The notes: generated by a model from the letters alone, not told the origin. A stretch of DNA of 64,000 nucleotides from an uncultured Gemmatimonadales bacterium (GCA_963798845.1 CAWCUS010000004.1:416001-480000); one strand, 5' to 3'; counted from the first letter of the stretch, positions 7,713-60,059 are shown. Made by a program: numbers and translations.

Positions 7713-7719
7713 GGTCGCG

Positions 7720-43443: not shown

Positions 43444-44463
43444 TCAACCCTGGTTTTCGTGGAGCCGCGGGGCGAGGACGCGCCACGCCACGAGCGCGGG
43501 GATGCTGAGCGCAATCTCCCGGAGGCGCTTCACGAGGGATACGGCAACGCCGGTCGCGGCGGCCAGCCCGACGAGCCGTGCGCCGAGGAGGTAGCCGCCC
43601 TCTTCCGCCCCCATGCCGCCGGGGATCATGAAGCCGGCGTTCGCGGCCGCCTGCCCGACGCTCTCCATGGCCACGAGGGCGGCGGGGGCCAGCACGTGGC
43701 CCGTAACGTAGAGGATGAGTCCGATCTCCACCGCCCCGAACGCCCAGGCGAGAAAGCTCCAGAAGGCGCTGAACGCCAGCGGCGTCCGCTTCTGGTAGAT
43801 CTCGGAGAAGCAGGCGTCCACGCGGGCGAGGTTGCCTGACAGCCGGAGGAGCGCGTCTCGCTCCGTCGCCTCCTCCACCTTCCGCGCCAGCCGTATCAGG
43901 AGCCCGCTGCGCTGCACGACGTAGAAGACGCCGAACGCCGCGGCCAGGCCCGCGCCGGCGGCTTCGAGGCCCGCGGCCGGCGCGCCCTCCTCCAGCACGA
44001 GCAGCGCCACGCCGATCGCGATGAAGCCCACGAGCGTGAACAGCCGGATCGTCATCTCCACGACGATGACGGCGCTGGCCACCGCGCCGTCGATCCCCTG
44101 CGCGGCCTGCAGGTCCGCGCGCACGAACGCGCCGCCGATTCCGGCCACCGGGAGCAGCGAATCGACCGAGTCGCTGAGCCAGCGCAGCGCGAACAGCTCG
44201 CGGAAGGGACGTCGCACACCCTGCGCTCGCAGGAGGGTGCCCCAGGAAGCGGTCTTGAGCGCGTACTCCAGCGGATGCAGCGCCGCGATCGGGATCAGCC
44301 ACAGCCCGGCCCCGAGAACGAGCCTGAGCACGGCGGTCGTGTTCGCCAGCAGTACGAGGGCGACGAGAGCGAACGCCCCCGTCAGGAACAGGACGGCCGT
44401 CGAGATCCTCAGCTTCAGCGCGACCCGGGGTACCTCCGATTCCGGCCCTGTGACTGCCTCCAT
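43444..44463 (-). CDS. Lysylphosphatidylglycerol-synthase-like TM (flippase-like, HpnL-like) protein
   Basis: Multi-TM; RWLSDSVDSLLPVAGIGG, IPGGMGAEEGG, KRLRE; divergent from shc. Confidence 0.75.
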   Translation of the reverse strand: MEAVTGPESEVPRVALKLRISTAVLFLTGAFALVALVLLANTTAVLRLVLGAGLWLIPIAALHPLEYALKTASWGTLLRAQGVRRPFRELFALRWLSDSVDSLLPVAGIGGAFVRADLQAAQGIDGAVASAVIVVEMTIRLFTLVGFIAIGVALLVLEEGAPAAGLEAAGAGLAAAFGVFYVVQRSGLLIRLARKVEEATERDALLRLSGNLARVDACFSEIYQKRTPLAFSAFWSFLAWAFGAVEIGLILYVTGHVLAPAALVAMESVGQAAANAGFMIPGGMGAEEGGYLLGARLVGLAAATGVAVSLVKRLREIALSIPALVAWRVLAPRLHENQG

Positions 44464-44852: not shown

Positions 44853-46910
44853 ATGGCATCACGCCATGTGCACAGGTCGCGACCCGGCACGCCGCCGGGA
44901 ATCCGGTGGAATCGCCCGTCGGTCGCTCCGCCGGCGGGACCCGGCGCCGTGTTTCCGTCAGTGCAGCGGTCGGTGCTTCGAGCGCGCGACAACGTCTTGC
45001 GCCAGCAGCGGTCCGACGGCCACTGGTGCGGGATCCTGGAGGGCGACAGCATCCTCGAGTCCGAGTACGTCCTGCTTCAGCACTTCCTGGGGCGGGGAGA
45101 CGGGATGAAGGCGCGCAAGGCCACGCGCCGGCTGCGCTCGCTCCAGACCGCCGATGGCGGTTGGTCAATGTACCCGGGCGGGCCACCGGACGTGAGCGCG
45201 TCCATCAAGGCGTACTTCGTCCTCAAGCTCCAGGGCGACGACCCCGAAGCGGCGCACATGCGCCGGGCCCGACAGGTCATCCGGGCGCTCGGCGGGCTGC
45301 CGGCCGCCAACACCTACACGCGCGTCTATCTCGCCCTGTTCGGGCAGTGGGAGTGGGAGCGCTGCCCCGCCATCCCGCCCGAGATGCTGCTCCTCCCCCG
45401 CTGGTTCCCATTCCACGTCGACCGGATGTCGTCGTGGAGCCGCGCGATATTCGTCCCGCTCTCCGTCCTCTGGGCGCTCCGGCCGCGGGTCGACATCGCG
45501 CCGGCCGCGGGGCTCGGCGAGCTGCGGCCGGCCGAAGAGCGCGCGATGCTCGAGCGGCTCGCCGCGCACCCGGACGACCCCGATGGCGATGACGCGGACG
45601 TGGACATCGACGCCGAGCTCGGCCTGGGCGCCCTCGCATGGGGCGCCTTCTTTCGCACTGCCGATGCCGGGCTGCGGCACATCGAGCGGGTGCGCGTGAC
45701 CCCGCTGCGACGCCGCGCTCTCGAGGCGGCGGAAGCCTGGATCCTCGAGCGCATCGACAGCACCGACGGCCTGGGTGCCGTCTTCCCGTCCATCGCCAAC
45801 GCGATCATGGCGCTGCGCTGTCTCGGCTACGAGCAGGACCACCCAGCGCTCGCGTCCCAGCAGCGCGCGATGGAGAAGCTGGAGGTGGACCATGGGGACA
45901 CCCTCCAGATCCAGCCGTCGCTGTCACCGGTCTGGGATACCGCGCAGGCCATGGCCGCCCTCGCGGCTGCCGGCGTCCCGCCCGAACACCCCGCCCTCCT
46001 CCTGGCCAGCGAATGGCTCCTGGACCGCGAGGTCACCGCCGCGGGCGACTGGCGGTGCGGCAATCCGGACGGACCCGTCGGCGGCTGGTATTTCGAATAC
46101 GCCAACGAGTTCTACCCGGACTGCGACGACACCGCCGAGGTCCTCGAGGCCCTCCGCCCCCTCGCCGAGTCCGGCGCCGGCGACACCGCGCGGATCGAGG
46201 CCGCGCGTGACCGCGGACTGGAATGGCTGCTGTCCATGCAGAACGAGGACGGCGGCTGGAGCGCGTTCGATCGGGGCTGCGATTTCCGTCCCCTGATCCA
46301 TGTCCCCTTCGCCGACCACAACGCCATGCTGGATCCCAGCTCCGTGGACATCACGGGCCGGATCGTCGACATGCTGGTATCCGATGGGATGGACCCGACG
46401 CATCCCGTCATCAGGCGGGCGGTCGGCTTCATCCGCGCGCGCCAGGACGAGGACGGCACGTGGTACGGGCGCTGGGGATGCAACCGCATCTACGGCAGCT
46501 GGCTTGCCCTCACCGGCCTCGCGGCCGCCGGTGAGGACACGGAAGGAGAACCGGTGGCGCGCTGCGTGCGCTGGCTGCGGGATCACCAGAACGAGGATGG
46601 CGGGTGGGGCGAGACACCTACCTCCTATTGGGATCGGAGCAGCCGGGGCGTGGGCCCCAGCACGGCCGCCCAGACCGCGTGGGCGCTGCTCGCGCTCCAC
46701 GCCGCCGGAGACCCCGGCTCTCCGGCCGTGCGCGCCGGGATCGCCTACCTGCTGCGCACGCAGCGGGCGGACGGGTCCTGGCACGACGAGTCGTGGACGG
46801 CAACCGGGTTCCCGAAGGTCTTCTTCCTCCAGTATCACATGTACGACGACTACTTCCCCCTGCTGGCGCTCGCCCGGTGGGCATCTGCTGAACGCGAGGA
46901 GTACCGATGA
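44853..46910 (+). CDS. shc: Squalene-hopene cyclase
   Basis: Catalytic DCDD (YPDCDDTAEV), SPVWDT, QW repeats (QRSDGHW, QNEDGGW, QDEDGTW), WYGRWG, GFPKVF; AGGAGG RBS. Confidence 0.96.
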   Translation: MASRHVHRSRPGTPPGIRWNRPSVAPPAGPGAVFPSVQRSVLRARDNVLRQQRSDGHWCGILEGDSILESEYVLLQHFLGRGDGMKARKATRRLRSLQTADGGWSMYPGGPPDVSASIKAYFVLKLQGDDPEAAHMRRARQVIRALGGLPAANTYTRVYLALFGQWEWERCPAIPPEMLLLPRWFPFHVDRMSSWSRAIFVPLSVLWALRPRVDIAPAAGLGELRPAEERAMLERLAAHPDDPDGDDADVDIDAELGLGALAWGAFFRTADAGLRHIERVRVTPLRRRALEAAEAWILERIDSTDGLGAVFPSIANAIMALRCLGYEQDHPALASQQRAMEKLEVDHGDTLQIQPSLSPVWDTAQAMAALAAAGVPPEHPALLLASEWLLDREVTAAGDWRCGNPDGPVGGWYFEYANEFYPDCDDTAEVLEALRPLAESGAGDTARIEAARDRGLEWLLSMQNEDGGWSAFDRGCDFRPLIHVPFADHNAMLDPSSVDITGRIVDMLVSDGMDPTHPVIRRAVGFIRARQDEDGTWYGRWGCNRIYGSWLALTGLAAAGEDTEGEPVARCVRWLRDHQNEDGGWGETPTSYWDRSSRGVGPSTAAQTAWALLALHAAGDPGSPAVRAGIAYLLRTQRADGSWHDESWTATGFPKVFFLQYHMYDDYFPLLALARWASAEREEYR

Positions 46911-47911
46911 TGCGATTTCCGCCCCATATCGTCACCGACAACATCCGGCACCAGGTGTCGAACGCCATGAAGGGGAACAGGCGCTATCCGTCTGTCCTGA
47001 TGCTGGAGCCGCTGTACACGTGCAACCTGGCGTGCGTCGGCTGCGCGCTGGAGCGGCACACGGGTAAGCTCTCGGATCGTGTGTCGGTGGAGCGCGCCCT
47101 CGGAGCCGTCGAGGACTCCGGCGCCCCTGCTGTGTCCATCTGCGGTGGCGAGCCCACGATCTACCCGGAGCTGCCGGAGCTGGTGCAGGGCATCATCGAT
47201 CGCAAGCGGCACATCTACCTGTGCACGAACGCCCTCATGCTGGACCGCCGCGTGTTCGACGTCATCCCGCCGCACAAGCGTCTGAGCATCAACATCCACC
47301 TCGATGGGATGCGAGACACGCACGATTTCGTGACGGACCGTGCCGGGGTGTTCGACAAGGCAGTCGAGATGATCAGGGAGTCCAAGGCGCGCGGCTATCA
47401 CACCCTCACGAACACCACGATCTACAAGCAGACGGACGTGGAGGAGGTGGAGGAGCTCTGTCAGCTGTGTGCCGGCCTCGGCGTCGACGGGATGATGATC
47501 GCGCCAGGCTACCACTACGAGTCCGTGGAGCGGGACGTGTTCATGGTGCGCCAGGAGATCGAGGACAAGTTCAAGCGCGTGCGCGAGTTCGCGGACCGCT
47601 ACCCGATCACGTCCACGCCCATGTTCCTCGAGTTCGCCGCGGGGCTGCGCGAGCTCGACTGCTCCCCCTGGAGCACCGTGACGTACACGCCGCGCGGGTG
47701 GAAGGGCCCCTGCTATCTCATCGGCGAGCGCTACTACGACGACTGGGAAGAGTTCTGGAACACCACCGACTGGCAGTACTGGGAATCCCGCCAGGATCAT
47801 CGCTGCCAGAACTGCAAGATGCACTCGGGGTTCGAGGCATCCGCCGTGCGTGAGGTGGCGAAGAGCCCGCGACACATGGCGAAGATGGCGCTCTGGCAGA
47901 TCTCGGCGTGA
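46907..47911 (+). CDS. hpnH: Adenosyl-hopene transferase (radical SAM)
   Basis: VLMLEPLYTCNLACVGC, GGEP, YLCTNA, RCQNCKMHSGFE; coupled to shc. Confidence 0.9.
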   Translation: MMRFPPHIVTDNIRHQVSNAMKGNRRYPSVLMLEPLYTCNLACVGCALERHTGKLSDRVSVERALGAVEDSGAPAVSICGGEPTIYPELPELVQGIIDRKRHIYLCTNALMLDRRVFDVIPPHKRLSINIHLDGMRDTHDFVTDRAGVFDKAVEMIRESKARGYHTLTNTTIYKQTDVEEVEELCQLCAGLGVDGMMIAPGYHYESVERDVFMVRQEIEDKFKRVREFADRYPITSTPMFLEFAAGLRELDCSPWSTVTYTPRGWKGPCYLIGERYYDDWEEFWNTTDWQYWESRQDHRCQNCKMHSGFEASAVREVAKSPRHMAKMALWQISA

Positions 47912-47917
47912 CTTCCC

Positions 47918-48913
47918 GTGCCCCCCTCCGTCCTGGTCACCGGCGCGACGGGATTCATCGGGTCCCACGTGGTCCGGGCGCTGATCCGGCGGGGCGACGT
48001 CGTCCGCTGCCTCGTCCGGCCGGACAGCAGCCGCGTCGCCCTGGATGGACTGTCGGTGGACCTCGTCGAGGGGGACCTGACGCGCCCGGCCACGCTGCGG
48101 CCGGCCGTGCGCGGCGTCCGGACGGTCTTCCACTGCGCCGCCGATTATCGCTTCGGCGCCCATCTCGCCGACACGATCTTCCGCACCAACGTGGAAGGGA
48201 CGCGGGCGATTCTGGAGGCGGCTGCGGAGGCCGGAGTGGGGCGCGTGGTCCACACGAGCTCCGTGGGCGCGCTCGCCGGCGGGCGGACGCGGTCCACGCC
48301 CGCAGACGAGATGTCGCTCCCGGACGTGGACGAGCTCGTGGGCGCCTACAAGCGAAGCAAGTACGAGGCGGAGCGCGTGGCCGAGGAATGGCACCGGCGC
48401 GGCCTGCCGGTCGTGATCGTGTCCCCGTCCACGCCCATCGGCGAGTGGGATGCCAAGCCGACGCCCACCGGCCAGATGATCGTGGACGTCCTGAACGGCA
48501 GGATCCCGGCGTACGTGGAGGGCGGGCTCAACATCGTGGACGTGCGCGACGTGGCCGAGGGACACCTTCTCGCCGAGTCCCGCGGTCAGCCCGGCGAGCG
48601 CTACATCCTCGGAGGTCGCAACGTCACCTTCCGGGAGTTGTTCGAGATGATCGCCCGCGCGGCGGGGCTCGCGCCCCCACGACTGCGTGTCCCGCGCTGG
48701 CTCCCGCTCGTTGCCGCGCACGCCGAGAGCGCGCTGGCGCGCGTCCGCGGCCGAGCCCCGCGGCTCACGCCGGAAGCCGTGCGCATGTCGGCACTGCCCA
48801 TGTACTTCGACCCCGGACGCGCGATCCGGGAGCTGGGCCTTCCACAGCGCCCGGTGGAGGACGCCATCGCCCGCGCGGTGCGCTGGTTCCGGGACCGGGG
48901 GTACGCGCCTTGA
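47918..48913 (+). CDS. hpnA: Hopanoid-associated NAD-dependent epimerase/dehydratase
   Basis: TGATGFIG, HCAADYR, YKRSK, PSTPIG..DAKPTPTG. Confidence 0.88.
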   Translation: MPPSVLVTGATGFIGSHVVRALIRRGDVVRCLVRPDSSRVALDGLSVDLVEGDLTRPATLRPAVRGVRTVFHCAADYRFGAHLADTIFRTNVEGTRAILEAAAEAGVGRVVHTSSVGALAGGRTRSTPADEMSLPDVDELVGAYKRSKYEAERVAEEWHRRGLPVVIVSPSTPIGEWDAKPTPTGQMIVDVLNGRIPAYVEGGLNIVDVRDVAEGHLLAESRGQPGERYILGGRNVTFRELFEMIARAAGLAPPRLRVPRWLPLVAAHAESALARVRGRAPRLTPEAVRMSALPMYFDPGRAIRELGLPQRPVEDAIARAVRWFRDRGYAP

Positions 48914-49644
48914 CCAGCGCTGCCGTCCTCGTCGTGACCGCGCTGCCGGAAGAGACGCGGCCGGTGCGCCGGGCCCTTCGAGGCCGACGCGACGTCGTCG
49001 TCGCCACCACCGGCGATGGCGCCGAGCGCGCCCGCGCGGCCACGCGCGACCTCCTCGCCGAGCACCGCCCCCGGCTGCTGGTCGTGGCCGGGCTCGCCGG
49101 CTCCCTCACCTCTGGCGCCGCCCCGGGGGACGTGCGCCTGGCACGAGAGGTCCGCGACGAAGTCGGGCGCGTGCGTCACCCGGATGCGCTCCTGCTGGAG
49201 CGCGCTCGCGAGGCCGGCGTGGCGGAGGACGTGCTGGTCAGCGCCAGGAGCCTTGCGCGCACGCCCGAAGAGAGGGACCGTACGCGGCGACTCGCGCGCG
49301 TCCTCGTGCCCGGAACGGGCCTGGTCGACCTGGAGACGGCGGCGTGTGTGGACACGGCGGTGGAGGCCGGTGTAGCATGGCTCGCCGTGCGCGCCGTGAG
49401 CGACGGCCCGGACGACCTCCTCCCCGCTTGGCTGGAGGAAGCCCGTGATGCGCGGGGGTCGATCTCCCGCGGCGCCATCATCGGCGGCGCCGTGTTGCGC
49501 CCGGGGCGGATCCCCGCGCTCATCGCCCTCGGCCGCCGCGCCCGGCGCGCGGGCCGTGCGCTCGGGGACGCCGTGGCTTCCATCGTGATGGCGGCCGTCC
49601 CCGCCGTGGAGTCTGGGCAACGAAGGATCGGAAACAGAGCATGA
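48910..49644 (+). CDS. hpnG: Hopanoid-associated nucleoside phosphorylase (HpnG-like)
   Basis: TTG start overlaps the hpnA stop; VVTALPEE, GLAG, VDLETAA, VRAVSD PNP/UDP-fold motifs. Confidence 0.75.
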   Translation: MTSAAVLVVTALPEETRPVRRALRGRRDVVVATTGDGAERARAATRDLLAEHRPRLLVVAGLAGSLTSGAAPGDVRLAREVRDEVGRVRHPDALLLERAREAGVAEDVLVSARSLARTPEERDRTRRLARVLVPGTGLVDLETAACVDTAVEAGVAWLAVRAVSDGPDDLLPAWLEEARDARGSISRGAIIGGAVLRPGRIPALIALGRRARRAGRALGDAVASIVMAAVPAVESGQRRIGNRA

Positions 49645-50678
49645 GCACCGTGGAGAACGAATTCCAGGCCGCGACCTCGCAGCGGAAGGCGGAGCATATC
49701 CGGCTTGCCATGGACGCGCGCAACCAGCTCGAGGCCCACTATTTCGACCAGTGGCGCCTGGAGCACGATGCGTTGCCGGAGCTGGCGCTGGAGGAGATCG
49801 ACACCCGCGTCTCGTTCCTGGGCCGGTCGATGAAGGCGCCGCTCGTGATCTCGTGCATGACGGGCGGCACCGCGGAGGCCGGGACCATCAACCGGAACCT
49901 GGCGGCGGCGGCCCGGGCGAGCGGGGTTGCGCTCGGCGTGGGGTCGCAGCGCGCGGCGGTGGAGGACCCGTCGCTCGCCTGGACGTTCCAGGTGCGCGAC
50001 GTGGCGCCCGACGTTCCGCTTCTGGCGAACCTGGGCGCCGTTCAGCTCAACCACGGCTTCGGTCTGGACGAGTGCCGCGCGGCGGTGGACATGATCGGCG
50101 CGGATGCCCTCGTGCTCCACCTCAACGTGCTCCAGGAAGCGATCCAGCCGGAGGGAGACACGGACTTCCGGGGCCTGATCGAGCGGATCGGCGCCGTGGC
50201 CGATGGCCTGGACGTCCCGGTCATCGTGAAGGAGATCGGCTGTGGCATCTCCGGCGCCGTGGCCACTCGCCTCCAGCGCGTCGGCGTCCGCATGGTCGAC
50301 GTGGCAGGCGTCGGGGGGACCAGCTGGGCGCGCATCGAGAGCCGTCGCGCCCCGGACGCCGAGCTTGGCGAGCGCTTCGCCGGGTGGGGGATTCCCACGC
50401 CGGAAGCGATCCTCCAGGTCGCAGCGATCGAGGGTTTGACGGTCATCGGCAGCGGCGGGATCCGGACCGGGATCGACGTGGCCAAGGCCGTGGCGCTCGG
50501 CGCGACGCTGGCCGGGCTGGCCCAGCCGTTCCTCGCCCCGGCGAGGGAGTCGGCGGCAGCCGTGGAGGATCGCGTCGGCCGCATAGTACGGGAGTTGCGC
50601 GTGGCCATGCTTTGCAGCGGCGCTGGAGATCTGGGCGCGCTGAGCCGAATCGCCATCCGGAAGGAAGTGCAGCCATGA
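49641..50678 (+). CDS. fni: Type 2 isopentenyl-diphosphate isomerase
   Basis: RKAEHI, MTGG, GSQRAA, HLNVLQEAIQPEGD, VKEIGCG, GGTSW, SGGIR. Confidence 0.95.
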   Translation: MSTVENEFQAATSQRKAEHIRLAMDARNQLEAHYFDQWRLEHDALPELALEEIDTRVSFLGRSMKAPLVISCMTGGTAEAGTINRNLAAAARASGVALGVGSQRAAVEDPSLAWTFQVRDVAPDVPLLANLGAVQLNHGFGLDECRAAVDMIGADALVLHLNVLQEAIQPEGDTDFRGLIERIGAVADGLDVPVIVKEIGCGISGAVATRLQRVGVRMVDVAGVGGTSWARIESRRAPDAELGERFAGWGIPTPEAILQVAAIEGLTVIGSGGIRTGIDVAKAVALGATLAGLAQPFLAPARESAAAVEDRVGRIVRELRVAMLCSGAGDLGALSRIAIRKEVQP

Positions 50679-52036
50679 AGAGAAGCACCGTGACCACCAC
50701 CTCGCCCCAGGTGCACCTGCGGAACGGCAACGGGAACGGCCACCATAACGGCAACGGCCATCATCCCGCCGGCCAGCAGATCGCGGACGACGCGCTCGTG
50801 CACGACATGGCCACGGGGAAGCGGGCCCTGCACCGGATTCCGGACAGCATCGACGCCGGTCGGGCCGCGGAGCTTCGGCGCCGCGCCCTGGCGCGGATCA
50901 CCGGTGTGGAGCTGGCACACACCGGCCACTACAGCCTCGATGCCGAGCGTGCGGCGCGCTACAACTGCGAGAACTTCGTGGGTGTTGCGCAGGTCCCCGT
51001 GGGCGTGGTCGGGCCGCTTCCCGTGCGAGGCCGCAGCGAGCCGCTGTTCGTCCCGCTCGCCACCACCGAGGGCGCGCTCCTCGCCAGCACCAACCGCGGG
51101 TGCGCCGCCATCAGCGCCGCTGGCGGCGCCACCGTGGACGTGGAGGACGTCGGAATGACCCGCGCACCGGTGTTCCGGACCACGGGCATCGAGCACACCC
51201 GCAGGGTGGAGGCGTGGGTGGCGTCTCACCTGGAGGAAATGCGGGCCGTGGCCGCGCGAGACAGCCGCTTCATCCAGCTGCTGGACGTCCGCTCCCAGGC
51301 CGTCGGCACCTCGCTCTACCTGCGCTTCCGGTTCTCCACTGCGGACGCCATGGGCATGAACATGGCCACGATCGCCACCGACCGGATCGTAACCGAGCTC
51401 ATCGAGCCGGCCACCGGCGCCGACTGCGTTTCCCTGTCCGGCAACTACGGCGTGGACAAGAAGCCGTCCGCCATCAACGCGCGGGAGGGGAGGGGAAAGC
51501 GGATCTTCGCCGAGGTCGTGCTCAGCGGAGAGATCCTCGAGCGCTACCTGAAGACCAGTGCCGCCCCGCTGGTCGAGGTCCAGTACAGGAAGAACCTCCT
51601 CGGCTCGGCCGTGGCGGGGTCGCTCGGCTTCAATGCCCACTACGCCAATCTCGCGGCCGCGCTCTTCATCGCCACCGGGCAGGACCCGGCGCAGGTCGCC
51701 GAGGCGGCGCTGGGCACCACGTGCATCGAGCGCCGCGGCGAGGACGGCGTCTACTTCTCCATCTGCATGCCCAATGCGCCCGTGGGCGTCGTGGGGGGCG
51801 GCACCGGCCTGGCCACGCAGCGGGAGGCGCTCGCCCTCATGGGCGCGCTCCCGGACCCCGACAACCCGGGACAGGGAGCGATCCGCCTGGCAGAGGCGCT
51901 GGGCGCCACCGTCCTCGCGGGCGAGCTCTCCCTTCTGGCCGCCCTCACCTCTCGCGACCTGGCACGCGCCCACGAGAGGCTGGGCCGGGCCGGCACCGCC
52001 GCCGAGGTCGCCGAGGTCGTCGAGGCGAGGGAATGA
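50675..52036 (+). CDS. hmgA: HMG-CoA reductase, class I (NADPH)
   Basis: CENFVG, PLATTEGALLAS, DAMGMNM, SLSGNYGVDKK, GQDPAQ, LAGELSL; ATG overlaps the fni stop. Confidence 0.93.
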   Translation: MKRSTVTTTSPQVHLRNGNGNGHHNGNGHHPAGQQIADDALVHDMATGKRALHRIPDSIDAGRAAELRRRALARITGVELAHTGHYSLDAERAARYNCENFVGVAQVPVGVVGPLPVRGRSEPLFVPLATTEGALLASTNRGCAAISAAGGATVDVEDVGMTRAPVFRTTGIEHTRRVEAWVASHLEEMRAVAARDSRFIQLLDVRSQAVGTSLYLRFRFSTADAMGMNMATIATDRIVTELIEPATGADCVSLSGNYGVDKKPSAINAREGRGKRIFAEVVLSGEILERYLKTSAAPLVEVQYRKNLLGSAVAGSLGFNAHYANLAAALFIATGQDPAQVAEAALGTTCIERRGEDGVYFSICMPNAPVGVVGGGTGLATQREALALMGALPDPDNPGQGAIRLAEALGATVLAGELSLLAALTSRDLARAHERLGRAGTAAEVAEVVEARE

Positions 52037-53173
52037 ACCGTCCGGCCACCGTCCCGGCCACCGGCCGCGCTCCCGCCGCACCTCCCCCTGACGGGGTGGC
52101 GCGTCCGGAGCGGGCCTCTGCCCCGGGGAAGCTCATCCTCATGGGCGAGCATTCGGTGGTCTACGGCCAACCCGCCGTGGCCGCGGCCGTGCAGCGGCGA
52201 TATGCGCGTGACAGTGTCGCCGCGAACGCCGTCGGCAGAGCCCGGCGTCGCCCTGAAGCTGGGCCGCCATGCTCCCGTGTTCGTGCCGTGGAGCGAGGCC
52301 GTACGGGAGGTCGAGGCGGCCGTTGCGGCGGCAGGACGTGGCCGGGGCGACGGCGCGGCTCTCGCCGTGACGGCGCTGGGGGAGGCCGCGCGCCGCATCG
52401 GAGGCCAGCCGCCTTCCTTCGACGTCACGGTGGACAGCGACATCCCCGCCGGCCACGGCATGGGCAGCTCTGCCGCGCTCGCCCTGGCGATCCTCGACGC
52501 GGTCTGCCGTGCGGCTGGCCGTGGGCTCGATCGCGAAGCGCTCGAGGCAGCGGCTCACGTCGTCGAGCGCCGGCAGCACGGCGCCCCTTCCGGCGTCGAC
52601 GTCGCCACGGTCCTGAGAGGCGGCGTCATATGCGCGTCCGCGCACGAACCGACCGGCCAAGCCGGGCGCGCGGACGCCCCCCGCCTCCGGTTCCACGCCC
52701 TCGATGCCAGCTCCGCATCGCTGTCGCGCCTGCGCGTGTTCGACTCGGGGTGTCCGGCGAACGGGACGGGCGAGGTCGTGAGGGCGGTGCGGCGTCGCCT
52801 GGACGCGGATCCCGGCCTCGAAAGCGAGCTGGAGCGGATGGGCCGGCTGGCGGCCGGCTTCGCGGATCTCCTCGTCGCCGGTGACGACCCGGCGGCCGAG
52901 GCGAAGGCGATCCGGGAGTTCCAGGCGGCCCTGGAATCGCTCGGCGTGGTCCCGCCGTCCGCGGCGCGCCTGATCCGCCGCATCGAAGCGGAAGGCGGGG
53001 CGGCCAAGGTCTCCGGCGCGGGCGGCCTGTGCGATGGCGAGGATGGGAGGCCGGGCGCGGGCATGATCCTGGTCCACCACGAGGACCCGGAGCGCGTGCT
53101 CCGCTGGCCGTTCCTCGGCGGGCTCGAGCCCGTCGACGCCCTCGTCGGCGGCCCCGGGCTGGAGGCGTGGTGA
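52033..53173 (+). CDS. mvk: Mevalonate kinase; +1 frameshift at about 52200
   Basis: SAPGKLILMGEHSVVYG in the 52033 frame; IPAGHGMGSSAA, HGAPSGVD and KVSGAGG in the 52202 frame; junction CGG CGA T ATG. Confidence 0.85.
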
Positions 53174-54192
53174 GCGTCGTGCGCGCGGGCTCCGCCCTGG
53201 AGGTGTCGACGTGGATGGCTCCCGCCAACATTGCGCTCGTCAAGTACTGGGGCTCGCGTGATCCCAATGCAGGGCTGCCGGTGAACGCCTCCGTCTCCAT
53301 GACTCTGGATCGGTGCGTCGCCACGTGCACGGTGCGTCCGCGCCGGGGCGGCGGGGTCCGCGTCATGCGCGACGATGGACACCGGCTGGCGCCCGCGCCC
53401 CCGCCGCTCCGCGACCCGGTGGCCGCGCACGTCCAGCGCGTCGCGCGGCGGGCCCAGTGGGATGGCGGGGCCAATGTGGCCGTGCACGTGAACTTCCCGG
53501 TGGCGGCGGGGCTGGCCTCCTCGGCGGCGATCTTCGCGGCCGTCACCTGCGCGGCGGCCTCGGCCTTCGGCCTGGAGCTTTCCGCGGGCGACCTGGCGAA
53601 CCTCGCCCGCGCCGGCGGCTCCGGCTCCGCGGCACGGTCGGTCACCGGCGGTTACGTCGAGTGGCGGCCGGGCGCCGACGGAAGCGGCACCGAGCTGCAG
53701 ATCGTCGCGCCGGCCTCGCACTGGAGCCTGGCCGACGTCATCGCCATCGCCGATCCGACGCCGAAGCGCGTGTCATCGCGCGAAGGCCACCGCCGCGCAT
53801 TCACCAGCCCCTATTTCGAGCGGCGCCTCGCGCTTCTGGACGCCCGCGTCGCGCGGGTTCGGGAGGCGATCGCGGCGCGCGACCTCGCCGCCCTGGGCGA
53901 GGTCGTGGAGGAGGAGGCCACGGACCTGCACCTGATCGCCATGTCGTCCAGGCCGCCGATCCGCTACTGGCGCCCGGCCACGGTGGCGATCCTGGAGACG
54001 GTGGAGGCTCTCCGACAGGACGGGCGGGCCGCGTGGAGCACCCTCGATGCCGGTCCGAACGTCCACGTGATATGCGATCCGGACGTGGAGGAGGACGTGG
54101 CGGCGCGTCTCGCTGCCGTCCCCGGCGTTCAGCGCGTGATCCGGGACCGCACCGGCCGTGGTCCGGCCGTGTCGCCGGAGCACCTGTTGTGA
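53170..54192 (+). CDS. mvaD: Mevalonate-(di)phosphate decarboxylase, probably phosphomevalonate decarboxylase
   Basis: APANIALVKYWG, FPVAAGLASSAA, GSGSAARS, VSSREGH, TLDAGPNVHV. Confidence 0.9.
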   Translation: MSVVRAGSALEVSTWMAPANIALVKYWGSRDPNAGLPVNASVSMTLDRCVATCTVRPRRGGGVRVMRDDGHRLAPAPPPLRDPVAAHVQRVARRAQWDGGANVAVHVNFPVAAGLASSAAIFAAVTCAAASAFGLELSAGDLANLARAGGSGSAARSVTGGYVEWRPGADGSGTELQIVAPASHWSLADVIAIADPTPKRVSSREGHRRAFTSPYFERRLALLDARVARVREAIAARDLAALGEVVEEEATDLHLIAMSSRPPIRYWRPATVAILETVEALRQDGRAAWSTLDAGPNVHVICDPDVEEDVAARLAAVPGVQRVIRDRTGRGPAVSPEHLL

Positions 54193-54203
54193 CGGAGGCG
54201 GGA

Positions 54204-55148
54204 ATGCCTGGAACGGTCACGCTCGTCAAGCTCGGTGGCAGCCTGATCACCGACAAGAACGCGCCGGGGACGGCGCGCCCGGAACTGATCCGCCAGCTGG
54301 CGGAGCAGCTGGCGAGGGCGCACCGGTGCGGGCATCGCCTGGTGGTCGGGCACGGCAGCGGCTCCTTCGGTCACCCTGAAGCCAGGCGGGCAGGGCTGAC
54401 GGGCTCCGGCGCTGACGCACCACGAGTGGCCGTCCCGGCGGGTACGGGCGCCGCAGCGCCCGTCGACGCCGCTCCTCGAGCCGGCCGGGACGCCGGAAGG
54501 CTCCGCACCGCGCAGGCGGTACCGGTCCGCGCGGCCGGTGCCCGGGGAGAGCAGGGTGATGAGGCGCCATTCCCGCCGGCCGTCGCCCGGGTCCAGGCCA
54601 GGGCTGCCGAGCTGCACCGGCTGGTCCTCGACGCGCTCCTCGCCGCCGGCGCCGCTCCCTTCTCCGTCCCCCCGTCCGCCGTGGCGGTGGCGCGGGACGG
54701 CCGGATCGAGCATTTCCACGCCGAGACGGTCCGCCTGGCGCTGGGCCGGGACTTCATCCCGGTGCTCTACGGCGACGTGGTCCTGGACCGTGTCCGGGGC
54801 GCCTCCATCTGTTCGACCGAGAGCGCGCTCGGCGCCGTGGCGGACTCGCTCCGCGCAGTCGGCTGGCGCATCGATCGCTGCCTCTGGCTTGGCGCCACAC
54901 CCGGGGTGATCGGCCCGGACGGCCGCCCATTGGAGCGGATTTCCGTCGATCAGGGACAGGTGCTCCGTTCGGCCGCCGGTGGAGCAGAAGCCCCCGACGT
55001 CACCGGCGGCATGCGCCACCGCGTGGACGCCGCCCTCGCCTTCGCCCGGGCCGGCATCCCCTCGTGGATCGGTGATGGCAGCTCGCCCGACGTCCTCGAG
55101 CGGCTCCTCGCCGACGCCGAAGTCCCCGGTACCCTCGTCGCGCCATGA
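54204..55148 (+). CDS. ipk: Isopentenyl phosphate kinase (amino-acid kinase fold)
   Basis: VKLGGSLITDK, GHGSGSFGH, PVLYGDVV, DVTGGM; GGAGG RBS. Confidence 0.88.
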   Translation: MPGTVTLVKLGGSLITDKNAPGTARPELIRQLAEQLARAHRCGHRLVVGHGSGSFGHPEARRAGLTGSGADAPRVAVPAGTGAAAPVDAAPRAGRDAGRLRTAQAVPVRAAGARGEQGDEAPFPPAVARVQARAAELHRLVLDALLAAGAAPFSVPPSAVAVARDGRIEHFHAETVRLALGRDFIPVLYGDVVLDRVRGASICSTESALGAVADSLRAVGWRIDRCLWLGATPGVIGPDGRPLERISVDQGQVLRSAAGGAEAPDVTGGMRHRVDAALAFARAGIPSWIGDGSSPDVLERLLADAEVPGTLVAP

Positions 55149-55176
55149 CCCGATCCCGCGCTCCCGGAGAGCCACG

Positions 55177-56133
55177 ATGATCGCCACCGAACGCAGGAAG
55201 CAGCTGCACTCGCTCCTGGAGGAGACCAGCCGCACGTTCGCCCTGGCCATACCACTCCTTCCGGATCCGCTCTGTACCGAGGTCACGGAGGCCTACCTGC
55301 TGTTCCGCATCGCCGACACCTTCGAGGACTCCACCCGCTGGCCGGTTCCGCGACGGACAGCCGCTCTCGACGAGATGGCCAGGGTGTTGCAGCAACGGCC
55401 CGGCTCACGCGGCGTCCGTGCCGCCCTGGCCCGCCGCTGGCGCGAAGCCCGCCCGGTGGAGCACGCGGGCTACCTCCACCTCCTGGAGAAAGCGCCCCTC
55501 GTCTTTCAGGGGCTCCAGGAGATGCGCCCCGAGGCCGCCGACATCATCGCCGGCCATACCGTCCGGACCTGTCAGGGGATGGCTTCCTTCCTCCGCCGCG
55601 CCGACGCCGATGGCGTGCTCCGGCTGCGCGACCTGGACGAGCTCCGCGCCTACTGCTACGCGGTGGCGGGGATCGTGGGCGAGATGCTCACCGAGCTCTT
55701 CCTCCTCGATTGCGACGACGCGGCCCAGCTCGGCCCCCGCCTCCGCCGCCGCGCCCGCGAGTTCGGCGAGGCGCTCCAGCTTGTGAACGTGCTGCGGGAC
55801 TCCTCGGCCGACGTGAAGGAAGGAAGATCGCTCGTGCCTGGGTCCGTGTCGCGCCAGACGCTTTTCGATCTCGCGCGCGCCGACCTGCGCCGCGCGGCCG
55901 AATACACGCTCGCTCTCCAGTCCGCCGGCGCTGATGGCGGGATCGTCGCGTTCAACGCGCTCCCCGTTCTCCTCGCCATGGCGACCCTCGACCGGGTCCA
56001 GGAGGCGGGGCCCGGGAGCAAGATCTCACGCCCGCGGGTGTGGTCCCTCATGGCGCGCCTGAAGGCCGACATCCGCCTGGGCCGTCCCGTCATCCGCCTC
56101 GAGCGCGACGAGGCCGCCAGCCGCCCCGCGTGA
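55177..56133 (+). CDS. Squalene synthase (single-enzyme farnesyl-diphosphate farnesyltransferase type)
   Basis: TSRTFALAI, YLLFRIADTFED, YCYAVAGIVG, FGEALQLVNVLRD. Confidence 0.85.
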   Translation: MIATERRKQLHSLLEETSRTFALAIPLLPDPLCTEVTEAYLLFRIADTFEDSTRWPVPRRTAALDEMARVLQQRPGSRGVRAALARRWREARPVEHAGYLHLLEKAPLVFQGLQEMRPEAADIIAGHTVRTCQGMASFLRRADADGVLRLRDLDELRAYCYAVAGIVGEMLTELFLLDCDDAAQLGPRLRRRAREFGEALQLVNVLRDSSADVKEGRSLVPGSVSRQTLFDLARADLRRAAEYTLALQSAGADGGIVAFNALPVLLAMATLDRVQEAGPGSKISRPRVWSLMARLKADIRLGRPVIRLERDEAASRPA

Positions 56134-57425
56134 CAGCCGCCCCGCCCCGGACCGTCTCCGTCGGGGTGCTGGTCACCCTGCACCGCGGCCCCGGGGAAGG
56201 GGGGCACGTCCGCTGCTGGGAGCGGTTCGCGGAGGCCGCCGTGGATACGCCCGAGCTCGACCTCACCGTCTATTTCCTCGGCGACAATGGGTCCGAGCAC
56301 CGCCTGGGGCCCCGGACCCGCTACGTCACGCTGCGACCCCGGCTGGGGACCGACCGCTTCGCTTTCCTTCGCCAGGGCGCCGGGGACACCGACCTCGCTC
56401 CCGTCCACGGCCGCCTGGCCGCGCTGCTCCCGCGCCACGACGTTCTCCACGCCACCGACACGTTCGCCTTCGGGCGCACGGCCAGGCGGGTGGCCCGGCG
56501 CTCCGGCAGGCCGCTGGTCTTCTCGTTCCACACGCACCTGCCGCGCTTCACTCGCGTGTACGCCCGCCGCATCTTCCGCCGCACCTTCGGGATGGGGGTT
56601 CCGGGATGGCTGGGTCTCGACCACGTGCTGGTGGACGCGCTCCGGGTCCACGTCTGGGCCGCCCGCCTCACACGCCGCTCCGTGGAAGGGTTCATGCGGG
56701 ACAGCCGGACCGTCTTCGTGTCCAACGAGCAGGATCGGGCCTGGGCCACCGACACCGTCCCGCCGGCGCGCGTCCGGATGCTCCGGCGCGGAATCGACCC
56801 GGAGCGCTTCCGACCCCGCGCCAATGCGGCCGTGGAGGTCCGGCGCAGGTACGCGCTCCCGGACCGGCCGCTGGTGCTTTTCGCCGGGCGAGTCGACGAC
56901 AGCAAGAACGTCCTCCTCGTGGCTCGCGCGCTCCGCCGCCTGCTGGACTCGGACGCCACCGCCCACCTGGTGGTGGTCGGGGAAGGGGAGCGCACGACCG
57001 ACCTCGCCCACATCCTGGGCCCCGCCGTCTCCTGCCTCGGGGCACTGCCCCAGGAAGCGCTCGCCGATGTCTACGCGGCGGCCGACGTCTTCGCCTTCCC
57101 ATCGCGAACCGAGACGGTCGGCAACGTGGTCATCGAGGCGCTTTCCTCCGGCCTCCCTGCCGTCGTCGCGGCCGGGACGTCGTGCGCCGAGCGCGTGGCA
57201 GGGGCCGGTCGCGTCGGGCCGGTGGATGCGGGCACCGTCGTCGCCGAAGACAGCCCGGAGGCCTGGGCCGAGGCGCTCCGCCCCTTCCTGTCTGGGAACG
57301 GCCGGAAGGCGGCGGCGAGTGCCGCGGCGCGGCGCAGGATCGAGCGCGGGTGGCCGTCCTGGAGCGACGTGCTGCGGGAGGACCTGCTCCCGGTCTGGAC
57401 CGAGCTCCGGCAGCCGCGCCCGTGA
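56130..57425 (+). CDS. GT4 (GT-B) glycosyltransferase
   Basis: HTHLP, RRGID, FAGRV..SKN, FPSRTETVGNVVIEALSSGLP; GTGA overlap with the squalene synthase. Confidence 0.88.
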   Translation: MTAAPPRTVSVGVLVTLHRGPGEGGHVRCWERFAEAAVDTPELDLTVYFLGDNGSEHRLGPRTRYVTLRPRLGTDRFAFLRQGAGDTDLAPVHGRLAALLPRHDVLHATDTFAFGRTARRVARRSGRPLVFSFHTHLPRFTRVYARRIFRRTFGMGVPGWLGLDHVLVDALRVHVWAARLTRRSVEGFMRDSRTVFVSNEQDRAWATDTVPPARVRMLRRGIDPERFRPRANAAVEVRRRYALPDRPLVLFAGRVDDSKNVLLVARALRRLLDSDATAHLVVVGEGERTTDLAHILGPAVSCLGALPQEALADVYAAADVFAFPSRTETVGNVVIEALSSGLPAVVAAGTSCAERVAGAGRVGPVDAGTVVAEDSPEAWAEALRPFLSGNGRKAAASAAARRRIERGWPSWSDVLREDLLPVWTELRQPRP

Positions 57426-57479
57426 CCGTAGGCGGCACGGGATGCCTGGCGGGCCCGGTTCGCGCATATTGATCGTCGC

Positions 57480-60059
57480 ATGACGCGATCCTGGACCCCG
57501 GACGCCGTGAAGGCGTCGTGGCGGCGGCTCGAGCCGCTGCTGGCGCTTCCGTTCCTGCTCGTGGCGGTGGTGATGATCCACCACGAGATGCGGGAGTTCC
57601 GCTGGGCCGACGTGCGCGTTGCGGTGGCCGACCTCCCCGCCGGGCACGTGGCCGTGGCCGTCCTGCTCACCGCGTTGAGCTTCCTCGTGCTGACCACGTT
57701 CGACGTCCTGGGCCTCCGCTACGCCGGCCAGCCGCTCCGCTATCGCCGCACCGCCTTCGCTTCCTTCCTCGGCTACGCGTTCAGCAACGCGCTCGGCTTC
57801 CCGCTCCTCACCGGAGCCCCGGTCCGCTACCGCCTCTACACGGCGTGGGAGGTGGAGCCGGCGCGCATCCGCGACATCGTCGCATTCTACACGGCCTCGT
57901 TCTGGATCGGCTTCCTCGCCCTCGGCGGTGTGGTCCTGTTCCTCGAGCCGATCCACATCCCGGGGCTCCTTCGACTCCCCTTCCACAATGCGCGACCCCT
58001 GGGTGCCGCCTTCGCCCTCGCCGCCGTGGCGTATGCGTCGTGGGGTGTCGCGGGCGGCCGCGGCTTGCGGTTCGGCCGCTGGCAGATCTCGCCGCCCGGA
58101 CCGGCGCTGACCTTCGCCCAGCTCGGGGTAGCCATGGCCGACTGGGCGGTGGCCGCCGCGGTGCTCTACGTCCTGCTCCCGCCCGGAAGCGGCCTGGGCT
58201 ACCCGGCCTTCATCGGCATCTTCCTGCTCGCGCAGATCGCGGGCCTGGTCAGCCATGTGCCCGGCGGGCTGGGCGTGTTCGAGGCCGTCACCCTGGCTTT
58301 TCTCCCCGATGAGATCGGACAGGGCGCCCTGCTCGCCTCCCTCCTCGTCTACCGCGCCGTCTACTACCTCCTCCCGCTCCTCGTCGCCGTCGCCGCGCTC
58401 GGCGTCTTCGAGGCGCGCCGCCGGCGCGAAGGGTTGGAGCGCGCGGCCGGCCTCATTGGCCGGGGCCTCACCCTGGTGGTCCCGCAGGCCATGGCGATCG
58501 CCACTTTCGTGGCCGGACTCGTCCTCCTTTTCTCCGGCGCTACTCCCGCAATGGGAGGACGCCTGCGCTGGCTCGATGATGTCCTCCCCCTCGGCCTCAT
58601 CGAAGCATCCCATTTCCTCGCCAGCCTGGCTGGCGGCGGCCTCCTCGTCCTCGCCTGGGGTATACAGCGACGCCTCGACGCCGCCTACCACCTCACCGTC
58701 GCCCTCCTCCTCACGGGGATCGTCTTCACGCTGCTCAAGGGGCTCGACTACGAGGAGGCCGTCGTCCTCGCCATCACGACCGGTGCCCTCGTGGCCAGCC
58801 GCGGAGAGTTCTACCGCCGCGCTTCCCTCCTCGCCGAGCCGTTCACCGCCGGGTGGGCCGCGGCCGTGCTCGGCGCGCTCATCGCCACGATCGGCCTCGG
58901 GCTCCTGGCCTACAAGAACGTGGTCTACACCGACGCTCTCTGGTGGCGCTTCGCCCGCGACGCCGACGCGCCCCGGTTCCTCCGGGCGACGGTCGGCACC
59001 CTCACGGCCGTCGGCACGTTCGCGCTCGCCCGCCTCCTCGCGCCCGCTCGCCCCTCAGCGCCGCTCCCGCCCGCCGATGACGTCGCCACCGCCGCCGACA
59101 TCGCCCGGCGCTCTCCCCGCGCGTACCCCCAGCTGGCGCTGCTCGGGGACAAGCATTTCCTCTTCGACGAGGAGCGGAGCGCGTTCCTGATGTACGGCGT
59201 CGAAGGTCGCAGCTGGGTGGCGATGGGCGATCCGGTCGGACCCGATCCGCCCGCGCGAGAGCTCGCGTGGCAGTTCCTCGAGCGCGCACACCGCCACGGT
59301 GACTGGCCCGTGTTCTACCAGGTCACGCCCGCCCGGCTGCCCCTGTACGTCGACCTCGGCCTCTCCCTGACCAAGATCGGCGAGGAGGCTCGCGTCCCGC
59401 TCCCGGAGTTCTCCCTCGAGGGCGGCCGCCGCAAGGGGATGCGCTACACGCTCCGCAAGGCCGACGACAAGGGCGCTTCGTTCCGGGTGCTCGAGCCCGA
59501 CGAGCTCGCGCAGGCCCTGCCCCGGCTGCGCGCCGTCTCCGACGACTGGATCGCCCGCAAGAACACGCGCGAGAAGGGCTTCTCCCTCGGGTTCTTCGAC
59601 GAGGCGTACCTTCGCGCGACCAGCGTGGCCGTCGTCGAGCTGCAAGGAGAGATCGTCGCTTTCGCCAACGTGCTCCGCGGCGCCGACCGCCACGAGCTCT
59701 CCGTCGACCTCATGCGCTACGCCGCCGCCGCGCCCCCGAGCACCATGGAGTACCTCTTCGTTCGGCTCCTCCTCTGGGGGCGGGACACGGGGTACGACTG
59801 GTTCAGCCTGGGCATGGCCCCGCTCGCCGGGCTCCAGGCCCGCCCCCTCGCCCCCTTCTGGGTCCGGGCTGGCGCCGCCCTGTTCCACCACGGCGAACAG
59901 TTCTACAACTTCGAGGGGCTGCGCGAGTACAAGGAGAAATTCGATCCGGTCTGGGAGCCCCGCTACATCGCTTCCCCCGGCGGACTGGCCCTCCCGCGCG
60001 TCCTGGCCAACGTGGCGACGCTCGTCAGCGGAGGCTTCCGCGGCGTCGTCGGGCGCTGA
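57480..60059 (+). CDS. mprF: Bifunctional aminoacyl-phosphatidylglycerol flippase/synthase
   Basis: N-terminal multi-TM region (VPGGLGVFE), LGDK, MGDPVG, EKGFSLG, DLMRY, LGMAPL, FYNFEGLREYKEKFDPVWEPRY. Confidence 0.94.
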   Translation: MTRSWTPDAVKASWRRLEPLLALPFLLVAVVMIHHEMREFRWADVRVAVADLPAGHVAVAVLLTALSFLVLTTFDVLGLRYAGQPLRYRRTAFASFLGYAFSNALGFPLLTGAPVRYRLYTAWEVEPARIRDIVAFYTASFWIGFLALGGVVLFLEPIHIPGLLRLPFHNARPLGAAFALAAVAYASWGVAGGRGLRFGRWQISPPGPALTFAQLGVAMADWAVAAAVLYVLLPPGSGLGYPAFIGIFLLAQIAGLVSHVPGGLGVFEAVTLAFLPDEIGQGALLASLLVYRAVYYLLPLLVAVAALGVFEARRRREGLERAAGLIGRGLTLVVPQAMAIATFVAGLVLLFSGATPAMGGRLRWLDDVLPLGLIEASHFLASLAGGGLLVLAWGIQRRLDAAYHLTVALLLTGIVFTLLKGLDYEEAVVLAITTGALVASRGEFYRRASLLAEPFTAGWAAAVLGALIATIGLGLLAYKNVVYTDALWWRFARDADAPRFLRATVGTLTAVGTFALARLLAPARPSAPLPPADDVATAADIARRSPRAYPQLALLGDKHFLFDEERSAFLMYGVEGRSWVAMGDPVGPDPPARELAWQFLERAHRHGDWPVFYQVTPARLPLYVDLGLSLTKIGEEARVPLPEFSLEGGRRKGMRYTLRKADDKGASFRVLEPDELAQALPRLRAVSDDWIARKNTREKGFSLGFFDEAYLRATSVAVVELQGEIVAFANVLRGADRHELSVDLMRYAAAAPPSTMEYLFVRLLLWGRDTGYDWFSLGMAPLAGLQARPLAPFWVRAGAALFHHGEQFYNFEGLREYKEKFDPVWEPRYIASPGGLALPRVLANVATLVSGGFRGVVGR

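Follow-up and report, generated by a model that had tools for sequence, protein, structure and literature searches.

Hopanoids rank among the major geological biomarkers, and the C5 pathway that feeds them shapes the isotope and labelling signatures of the organisms that produce them. A stretch of 64,000 nucleotides from an uncultured Gemmatimonadales bacterium (GCA_963798845.1, CAWCUS010000004.1:416001-480000; hereafter the window) carries, at 44853-57425, a run of hopanoid genes that continues directly into genes of the mevalonate pathway. It raises the question whether this bacterium feeds its hopanoids from a precursor supply encoded alongside them, through a mevalonate route that depends on isopentenyl phosphate kinase (IPK). 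The original prediction for this locus described a near self-contained module leading from 3-hydroxy-3-methylglutaryl-CoA (HMG-CoA) to C35 hopanoids, with its own precursor supply and possibly assembled horizontally. Our analysis indicates that the run is a real hopanoid supercluster fused with mevalonate genes of probable IPK type in a Gemmatimonadota genome, probably providing an extra, squalene- and hopanoid-linked supply beside the methylerythritol phosphate (MEP) pathway. All its enzymes belong to known families; what is new is their architecture and taxonomic range.

The window corresponds to positions 416001-480000 of contig C4 in genome G000, an assembly of 4.26 Mb in 6 contigs with about 70% G+C and 96.3% completeness. 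Genes were called with Pfam and NCBIfam profile scans, after which start codons were inspected; for some genes the start was chosen among candidates (for instance TTG for hpnG-like, GTG for mvaD, GTG for GT4). The comparison genomes are G001, of the same genus as G000, G011, of another genus in the same family, and G005, also of that family.

Hopanoid genes joined to mevalonate genes

The genes shc-hpnH-hpnA-hpnG-fni-hmgr-mvk-mvaD-ipk-sqs-GT4 all lie on the + strand of window 44853-57425, and start and stop codons overlap by 4 nt (ATGA, GTGA or TTGA) at eight junctions of the run. Content, order, co-orientation and overlaps agree with the original prediction. One gene departs from it: mvk, taken there for a single open reading frame, is split over two frames after codon 56.

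44853..46910, + strand: shc, squalene-hopene cyclase (SHC); TIGR01507 642.6 bits against a cut-off of 431.1; DCDDTA (DxDD) motif
46907..47911, + strand: hpnH, radical-SAM adenosylhopane synthase; TIGR03470 351.3 against 225; Pfam Radical_SAM and DUF3463
47918..48913, + strand: hpnA, hopanoid-associated sugar epimerase/short-chain dehydrogenase-reductase; TIGR03466 423.8 against 367.65
48910..49644, + strand: divergent HpnG-like nucleosidase/phosphorylase; Pfam PNP_UDP_1 49.1; TTG start assumed
49641..50678, + strand: fni, type-2 isopentenyl diphosphate isomerase (IDI2); TIGR02151 386.9 against 281.3; ATGA overlap with the preceding stop
50675..52036, + strand: hmgr, class-I NADPH HMG-CoA reductase (HMGR); Pfam HMG-CoA_red 376 bits
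52033..53173, + strand: mvk, mevalonate kinase (MVK), whole, over two frames
52033..52200, + strand: mvk N-terminal piece, 56 codons; PGKLILMGEH motif; TIGR00549 43.3 bits, profile positions 1-26
52202..53173, + strand: mvk C-terminal piece, 323 codons, in the next frame; TIGR00549 100.7 bits, profile positions 80-269; GHMP_kinases_N 65.4
53170..54192, + strand: mvaD, GHMP decarboxylase read as phosphomevalonate decarboxylase (PMD); best PDB match 6n0x
54204..55148, + strand: ipk, isopentenyl phosphate kinase; NF040647 120.3 against 120; GHGSGSFGH motif
55177..56133, + strand: sqs, single-enzyme eukaryote-type squalene synthase (SQS); Pfam SQS_PSY 117.7 against 26; DTFED and DSSAD motifs
56130..57425, + strand: GT4 glycosyltransferase; Pfam Glyco_trans_1_4 and Glycos_transf_1

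The hopanoid part opens with shc, whose product is matched by the TIGR01507 profile only from residue 35 onwards, so the real start may be further downstream. The stop of shc overlaps the start of hpnH as ATGA, and HpnH carries a CNLACVGC motif. The position of the hpnG-like gene is kept in G001 and G011, as well as in loci L028, L035, L036 and L039 of the wider survey described below.

Squalene synthesis by the HpnC/HpnD/HpnE route was not found in the cluster: its SQS scores 46.5 bits on the HpnD model against a cut-off of 278.6, and 39 on HpnC against 250.45. Genome-wide, SQS_PSY is matched by just two genes, this one and another located beside a polyprenyl synthase on contig C6, which leaves the cluster SQS as the sole candidate for squalene synthesis. 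A genome search for HpnN gave a best TIGR03480 match of 31.3 bits in G000 against a cut-off of 751.85; a relative (L039) has HpnN inside the cluster, at 873 bits. None of hpnI, hpnJ, hpnK, hpnO, hpnP and hpnR was seen in the window, the only part of the genome that was searched for them.

On the mevalonate side, the closest PDB chain to HMGR is 6hr7 (366 bits), followed by 8ecg, 7uli, 1dq8 and others, with no further chains at E<=1e-10. We take all of these to be plant and human class-I enzymes, in keeping with the class originally assigned. Residues 1-45 of HMGR (window 50675-50810) form an Asn/Gly/His-rich low-complexity stretch, NGNGNGHHNGNGHH, before the catalytic domain. For ipk, another candidate start, a GTG at 54189, overlaps the stop of mvaD. 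Co-transcription of these identified genes as an operon, and metabolic flux through their products, are predicted from the sequence.

A probable phosphomevalonate decarboxylase followed by an isopentenyl phosphate kinase

Scans of the window with Pfam and NCBIfam profiles recovered no phosphomevalonate kinase (PMK), HMG-CoA synthase (HMGS) or polyprenyl synthase. Across the 96.3%-complete genome, a search with the PMK model TIGR01220, which did not include the animal-type PF04275, came back empty at E<=0.01. GHMP_kinases_N is matched five times genome-wide, by mvk, mvaD, galK, ispE and one galactokinase-like protein. The pairing of decarboxylase and IPK first noticed in the window is supported by the absence of a PMK match in this search of the genome and by the structure nearest to MvaD.

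This structure, 6n0x, is matched by MvaD at 233 bits, compared with at most 145 bits for classical diphosphomevalonate decarboxylases (MDDs). It is the PMD of Anaerolinea thermophila with mevalonate 5-phosphate bound (PMC9254496; here and below, statements from the literature refer to the portions of each paper that were available). In the aligned stretch, PDB chain 6n0z differs from 6n0x by two changes, Lys for Asn in KYWGN and Met for His in QGH, which we read by alignment as an engineered swap of specificity. At these two discriminating places the window MvaD has KYWGS and SREGH: Ser replaces the Lys of MDDs, and His replaces Met. Dellas et al. 2013 (PMC3857490) count Lys21 as one of the residues with which MDDs bind diphosphate, and the Chloroflexota enzymes are described as devoid of the conserved Lys of diphosphomevalonate decarboxylases with the PMD His kept (PMC11052028).

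The pattern extends well beyond the window. Of 42 readable IPK-linked MvaD homologues, counting that of the window, 41 have no Lys (A, S, I, T or N instead) at the position equivalent to Lys21, and the second place is His in 41 of 43. The archaeal row L089 alone combines Lys and Met and serves as a built-in contrast. In that archaeal record, the Lys/Met-type decarboxylase is found at ~12256, ~1.5 kb behind IPK, with fni further on.

Among solved structures in the PDB, the seven that match the window IPK best are all IPKs or IPK-related kinases. Its residues 68-112 (54405-54539) constitute a 45-residue low-complexity insert, rich in Ala, Pro, Arg and Gly, that the G001 and G011 orthologues do not have.

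Altogether, because MvaD is PMD-like, IPK follows it and no PMK was found, the best reading is that mevalonate 5-phosphate would be converted to isopentenyl phosphate and then to isopentenyl diphosphate (IPP) by an IPK-dependent route.

Precursor supply elsewhere in the genome

All seven genes of the MEP pathway are present in G000 above their cut-offs: dxs (789 bits), dxr (438.6), ispG (388.6), ispD (245.7), ispH (233), ispF (196.7) and ispE (154.6). The mevalonate module is not the sole isoprenoid route here, unlike in haloarchaea and Chloroflexi, and the bacterium does not depend on it. Since the MEP pathway is complete in the window's genus, the module would represent an extra supply and not the only isoprenoid source.

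The original prediction had also stated that HMGS and farnesyl diphosphate (FPP) synthase were absent from the window, and suggested searching the genome for them together with PMK and MEP genes. Both are indeed encoded elsewhere or have candidates there. An intact, archaeal-type HMGS is located on contig C2 (TIGR00748 506.4 bits against 353.35), together with a thiolase and a DUF35/ChsH2-type protein. The genome has no match to PF08540, the HMGS C-terminal domain, because the enzyme is of the archaeal type; it was found instead with TIGR01835 and TIGR00748. There are three polyprenyl synthases in the genome, one of them adjoining dxs.

Frame changes in mvk and thiolase

The ATG of mvk at 52033 overlaps the hmgr stop as ATGA, and the frame shifts after codon 56, at about 52195-52205. 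The orthologues in G001 and G011 are single-frame. On TIGR00549, the intact G001 protein reaches 148.6 bits and the two window pieces 43.3 and 100.7; the sum of the pieces comes near the intact protein's score, so that mvk is well preserved apart from one frame change. In a DNA alignment with G001 and G011, the stretch 3' of the motif is too variable to pinpoint the extra base. Public reads (share of words in one run 0.19; three runs placed) contributed short pieces, mostly from other organisms; none of high likeness spans 52051-52296, and the frameshift is neither supported nor contradicted by them. In this assembly, either mvk has recently been broken or the assembly is wrong at that site.

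The thiolase beside HMGS (contig C2 of G000, locus L024, ~7306-8454, + strand) contains two compensating frame changes. An extra base follows WDSSLRQ (near 7377 of L024) and, ~190 nt on, a base is missing in a G run near 7560-7567. The stretch with the catalytic Cys falls out of frame between both changes; the versions of G001 and G005 are intact. One of the two sites is a run of six G.

As a background for split genes, 266 open reading frames were called in 400 kb of G001, and 194 of them have clear orthologues in G000. A single frame covers at least 85% of the gene for 183 orthologues, and just 1 is split over two frames (G000:C4:95326-96136, - strand). Among mevalonate-related genes 2 of 8 are split, compared with 1 of 194 in the background (Fisher p=0.004, for a test framed post hoc).

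The median identity of G000-G001 orthologues is 82.6%. Among the cluster proteins, those of hmgr (87%) and fni (85%) stand above it; mvaD (71%), gt4 (69%), hpnG (63%), mvk (61%) and ipk (61%) are within the lowest 12-17% of orthologue identities.

Conservation and distribution of the cluster

Gene order from shc to ipk is identical in G001 and G011. In G001, which has the whole cluster intact in addition to MEP genes, sqs, GT4 and mprF also follow behind. In the window, G001 and G011 the hopanoid genes run directly into fni, hpnG and fni overlapping by 4 nt.

An IPK alignment scan of species-representative genomes yielded 80 loci, with each of which the window proteins were compared. In 35 of them mvaD is placed immediately 5' of ipk. 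These loci belong mostly to Thermoanaerobaculia, other Acidobacteriota and Holophagales, the others being two Gemmatimonadota, one Salinivenus, one Isosphaeraceae and one Schekmanbacteria record. The remaining 45, mostly Anaerolineae, have ipk without the mvaD-ipk block. Further, sqs stands behind in 26 of the 80 loci, and hpnH and/or shc in front in at least 4 (L028, L035, L036 and L039), a lower bound as several loci end early upstream.

A polyprenyl synthase was seen 5' of fni in all six loci that were annotated, and the HpnN transporter lies between ipk and sqs in both Gemmatimonadota loci; the cluster of the window's family has neither. The core, (polyprenyl synthase)-fni-hmgr-mvk-mvaD-ipk-sqs, is a predicted operon conserved in dozens of Acidobacteriota metagenome-assembled genomes (MAGs), and occurs also in a few MAGs of Gemmatimonadota, Rhodothermota and Planctomycetota. 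Being shared with many Acidobacteriota and patchy in Gemmatimonadota, this core has most likely moved as a block.

Closer to the window, IPK matches were obtained in 3 of 40 relatives, one of the three being weak, and the locus of a genome of the same class, G285, is identical to L039. MvaD is found at E<=1e-20 in 9 of 401 sampled genomes of the phylum, G000 counted. Its module type (at least 49% identity) is restricted to 7 of the 401, namely G000, G011 and five members of family f7, a patchiness that fits horizontal spread. The original prediction allowed that the operon might already be common in the lineage: it is rare in Gemmatimonadota, but its core is frequent in Acidobacteriota. Horizontal assembly, as first proposed, is thus compatible with the distribution, but not as a one-off event in this genome, given the conservation of the fni-to-sqs core in Acidobacteriota.

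The MEP genes dxr and ispG have no match in G011, G414 (a single contig) and G121, all of which are module-bearing Gemmatimonadota. They occur only as fragments on one small contig in G285, and G001 has both. Most module-bearing Gemmatimonadota seem to have the module instead of MEP; the window's genus has both. The cases of G011, G414 and G121 suggest, as a separate observation, that MEP was replaced by mevalonate in parts of the phylum. Locus L117 (G414:C1:1846001-1866000) contains hmgr-mvk-mvaD-ipk-...-sqs, but its 12 kb of upstream sequence gave none of fni, hpnG, hpnH and shc; the hopanoid link therefore varies within family f7.

In an MvaD tree rooted on L089, the 37 module-type rows, drawn from Acidobacteriota, Gemmatimonadota and other phyla, group together in a single clade (Shimodaira-Hasegawa-like approximate likelihood ratio test, SH-aLRT, 100) beside a Chloroflexota clade (96), with the backbone inside the 37 rows lacking resolution. 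A tree of HMGR, MvaD and IPK concatenated over 29 rows (G011 dropped for its split IPK match) places the f7 Gemmatimonadota among Acidobacteriota (96) and the window's genus elsewhere, on a long stem (0.94; 0.94-1.0 over both trees). A single Gemmatimonadota clade was not rejected by the approximately unbiased (AU) test (p=0.48), and for this reason we make no claim on one acquisition versus two.

Flanking genes

The following genes of the window surround the cluster or were mentioned above.

43444..44403, - strand: HpnL-like membrane protein, divergent from shc; Pfam LPG_synthase_TM 91.5 bits; start provisional
57480..60059, + strand: mprF, lysyl-phosphatidylglycerol synthase/flippase; NF033480 920.9 against 600
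17729-18991, - strand: galactokinase (galK)

The HpnL-like protein scores 191.3 bits on the HpnL model TIGR03476, slightly below the cut-off of 195.65. At the other end of the run, no NCBIfam family passed its cut-off for GT4 in the window scan; this gene is kept behind sqs in G001 alone (69% identity) and was not found at the other compared loci. Next to it, mprF is a neighbouring gene, found 3' of GT4 in G001 too, and at most a candidate member of the cluster. Further away, at window 28694-38143 (+ strand), lies a gene for a 3149-residue megasynthase with ketosynthase, acyltransferase, acyl carrier protein, ketoreductase and dehydratase domains, of the polyunsaturated fatty acid synthase or polyketide synthase type.

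Proposed pathway and its alternatives

The genes fall into two sets. The first, comprising SQS, SHC, HpnH, HpnG-like, HpnA and the divergent HpnL-like protein, would lead to squalene and extended hopanoids; the second, with class-I HMGR, MVK, PMD, IPK and IDI2, would lead from HMG-CoA to IPP and dimethylallyl diphosphate (DMAPP). In the proposed sequence of reactions, HMGR would reduce HMG-CoA to mevalonate and MVK would phosphorylate it to mevalonate 5-phosphate. MvaD, acting as PMD on this predicted substrate, would release isopentenyl phosphate, from which IPK would form IPP, and IDI2 would isomerize IPP to DMAPP. With FPP provided by a synthase encoded elsewhere, SQS would then make squalene, SHC hopene, and HpnH with HpnG the C35 hopanoids. 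The genes of the module are in place as originally predicted, but as assembled here it may not work, mvk being frameshifted.

Several observations weigh against this reading. HMGR remains slightly below the cut-off of TIGR00533 (419.1 against 441.8), SQS below that of TIGR01559 (79.6 against 286.75) and the HpnG-like protein below that of TIGR03468 (74.7 against 187.1); MVK likewise falls below its NCBIfam cut-off. The Pfam domains of HMGR, SQS and the HpnG-like protein are clear all the same. A promoter and terminator scan of 43300-61000 returned one site resembling a promoter and three resembling terminators, a yield not above that of shuffled sequence. With the mvk frameshift and the two thiolase frame changes, the pathway is incomplete as assembled. 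The HMGS/thiolase/DUF35 operon is present also in G005 (HMGS 84% identical), where MvaD and IPK were not found, so that it may do something other than supply mevalonate synthesis. MvaD itself passes the diphosphomevalonate decarboxylase model TIGR01240 (186.4 against a cut-off of 171.35), and because of this we infer its substrate with caution; it is far below the haloarchaeal PMD model NF040704 (122.8 against 475). Among six phosphate-binding positions (PMC3857490, Table 4), it clearly departs from the MDD pattern only at the Lys: it keeps Ser-Gly-Ser and Ser-Ser-Arg like classical MDDs, and has Gly where A. thermophila has Arg. In addition, dual specificity is mentioned for the Chloroflexota enzymes (PMC11052028).

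These MDD-like features would suit an ordinary diphosphomevalonate decarboxylase, supplied with mevalonate 5-diphosphate by an unrecognised kinase, next to an IPK that only salvages isopentenyl phosphate. L089 demonstrates that a Lys/Met decarboxylase can sit near IPK, and the passed TIGR01240 cut-off and most of the phosphate-binding residues besides Lys point the same way. We nevertheless hold this to be very improbable: no GHMP-type PMK was found in the genome, the solved PMD outscores any MDD by 233 bits to 145, throughout the clade the enzymes lack the Lys and have the His, and 35 of 80 loci have mvaD next to ipk. A module that is decaying or dead in this organism, with selection relaxed by the presence of MEP, real frameshifts and hopanoids made from MEP precursors, would be harder to dismiss, though we judge it unlikely. 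It accounts for the split of mvk, intact in G001 and G011, for the thiolase with its catalytic-Cys stretch out of frame, intact in G001 and G005, for the excess of split genes (2/8 against 1/194, post hoc p=0.004), for the low identities of mvk, ipk and mvaD, and for the long stem of the genus (0.94-1.0) and the 45-residue insert in IPK. On the other hand, G001 keeps the whole cluster together with MEP, and the two pathways have coexisted stably over that time span; mvk is well preserved outside the frame change, and hmgr and fni are above median conservation. Runs such as the six G in the thiolase are typical places for assembly errors, and a compensating +1/-1 pair 190 nt apart would be odd for real decay. 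Besides, the reads did not span the mvk site, and the enrichment test was framed after the data.

The clustering might also carry no hopanoid meaning, the mevalonate genes being a general isoprenoid operon of a MEP-less donor lineage, inherited or transferred whole, and their adjacency to hopanoid genes historical. Most Acidobacteriota loci indeed have no hopanoid gene in the ~5 kb upstream of the polyprenyl synthase-to-sqs core, and in G011, G414 and G121, where dxr and ispG have no match, the module must serve all isoprenoids; the acidobacterial SD22 MAG similarly has mevalonate genes and no MEP genes in the account available (PMC5462960). Against it, in 26 of 80 loci the conserved core includes sqs, so that the operon itself ends in squalene instead of a general precursor; in the window, G001 and G011 no gap separates fni from the hopanoid genes; and G000 and G001 also retain full MEP. 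We find this explanation unlikely, to the same degree as that of decay. The fused supercluster with an extra supply remains the probable reading. A broader proposal, to which we give a little less than an even chance, is that the PMD/IPK route extends beyond Chloroflexota as a compact operon, (FPP synthase)-IDI2-HMGR-MVK-PMD-IPK-SQS, ending in squalene. It would be the main route of many Thermoanaerobaculia/Holophagae and of some Gemmatimonadota without MEP, and would have been added onto MEP and fused to hopanoid genes in the window's genus.

Implications

The decarboxylases described here make up a sister clade of those of Chloroflexota, always by IPK and usually by squalene synthase, in Acidobacteriota, Gemmatimonadota and a few other phyla. 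If the enzymes act as predicted, the known range of the PMD/IPK route widens, and an operon from HMG-CoA to squalene becomes available that would be useful for engineering. The dual-pathway Gemmatimonadota (G000 and G001) could then test whether one pathway is dedicated to one lipid class: the window's genus would be a natural test of pathway partition, and G000 may show the onset of decay of a redundant pathway. As the enzyme kinds are known and other genomes carry the cluster too, the surprise is limited.

Comparison with known systems

A literature search that did not cover supplements and figures returned no paper on an shc/IPK/PMD cluster, or on the PMD/IPK route in Acidobacteriota or Gemmatimonadota. 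According to the available part of Hoshino and Gaucher 2018 (PMC6107057), halobacteria and Chloroflexi are the only groups with a confirmed phosphomevalonate decarboxylase (MPD) route, and outside Archaea it is known from Chloroflexi alone; the text of that paper has no occurrence of Acidobacteria, Gemmatimonad-, hopanoid or squalene. Chloroflexota are the only bacteria named for the PMD/IPK route in the accessible part of a 2024 review (PMC11052028).

The window shares with the MPD route of haloarchaea and Chloroflexi (PMC3857490; VanNice et al. 2014 cited therein) a Lys-less MDD-like decarboxylase followed by IPK, with no PMK found, a class-I HMGR, an archaeal-type HMGS, a type-2 IDI and, as the closest structure, the Anaerolinea PMD. 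It differs in that the host is of Gemmatimonadota, with relatives among Acidobacteriota, and not of Chloroflexota or Archaea. Here the genes form one tight operon that includes sqs, whereas the mevalonate genes of Chloroflexi are described as not clustered in the part of PMC6107057 at hand. The window decarboxylase falls in a clade that is sister to the Chloroflexota enzymes and has more MDD-like residues; finally, full MEP coexists with the module, and mvk is broken in the assembly.

Compared with the hpn clusters of Proteobacteria and Acidobacteria (hpnCDE-shc-hpnH and hpnA-hpnG, as presented in the available sections of PMC5462960), shc, hpnH, hpnA and the hpnG-like gene likewise stand side by side in one orientation, next to an HpnL-like gene. 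A single eukaryote-type SQS replaces HpnC/HpnD/HpnE, however, the precursor genes are those of the mevalonate pathway, and HpnN was not found in the window's genome. The closest published case is that of Sinninghe Damste et al. 2017 (PMC5462960), whose SD22 acidobacterial MAG 'Mor1' is reported, in the same sections, to have most mevalonate genes, shc, hpnH and a squalene-synthase homologue, and to be without hpnCDE, as here. Contrary to the window's genome with its seven MEP genes, SD22 has none according to these sections; mevalonate genes are coloured in the maps of Figure 7. IPK and phosphomevalonate decarboxylase are not mentioned in the text of that paper as far as it was available.

The window also does not have the classical pair of PMK and Lys-bearing diphosphomevalonate decarboxylase: no PMK was found in the genome, and the Lys is replaced by Ser. 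Classical bacterial mevalonate clusters presumably follow the order mvk-mvaD-pmk-fni-hmgr-hmgs. With respect to this arrangement, IPK takes the place of PMK, HMGS is outside, and sqs and the hopanoid genes are inside. In common with the classical clusters (Hoshino and Gaucher 2018), the genes occur as an operon in a mostly-MEP phylum and spread as a syntenic set.

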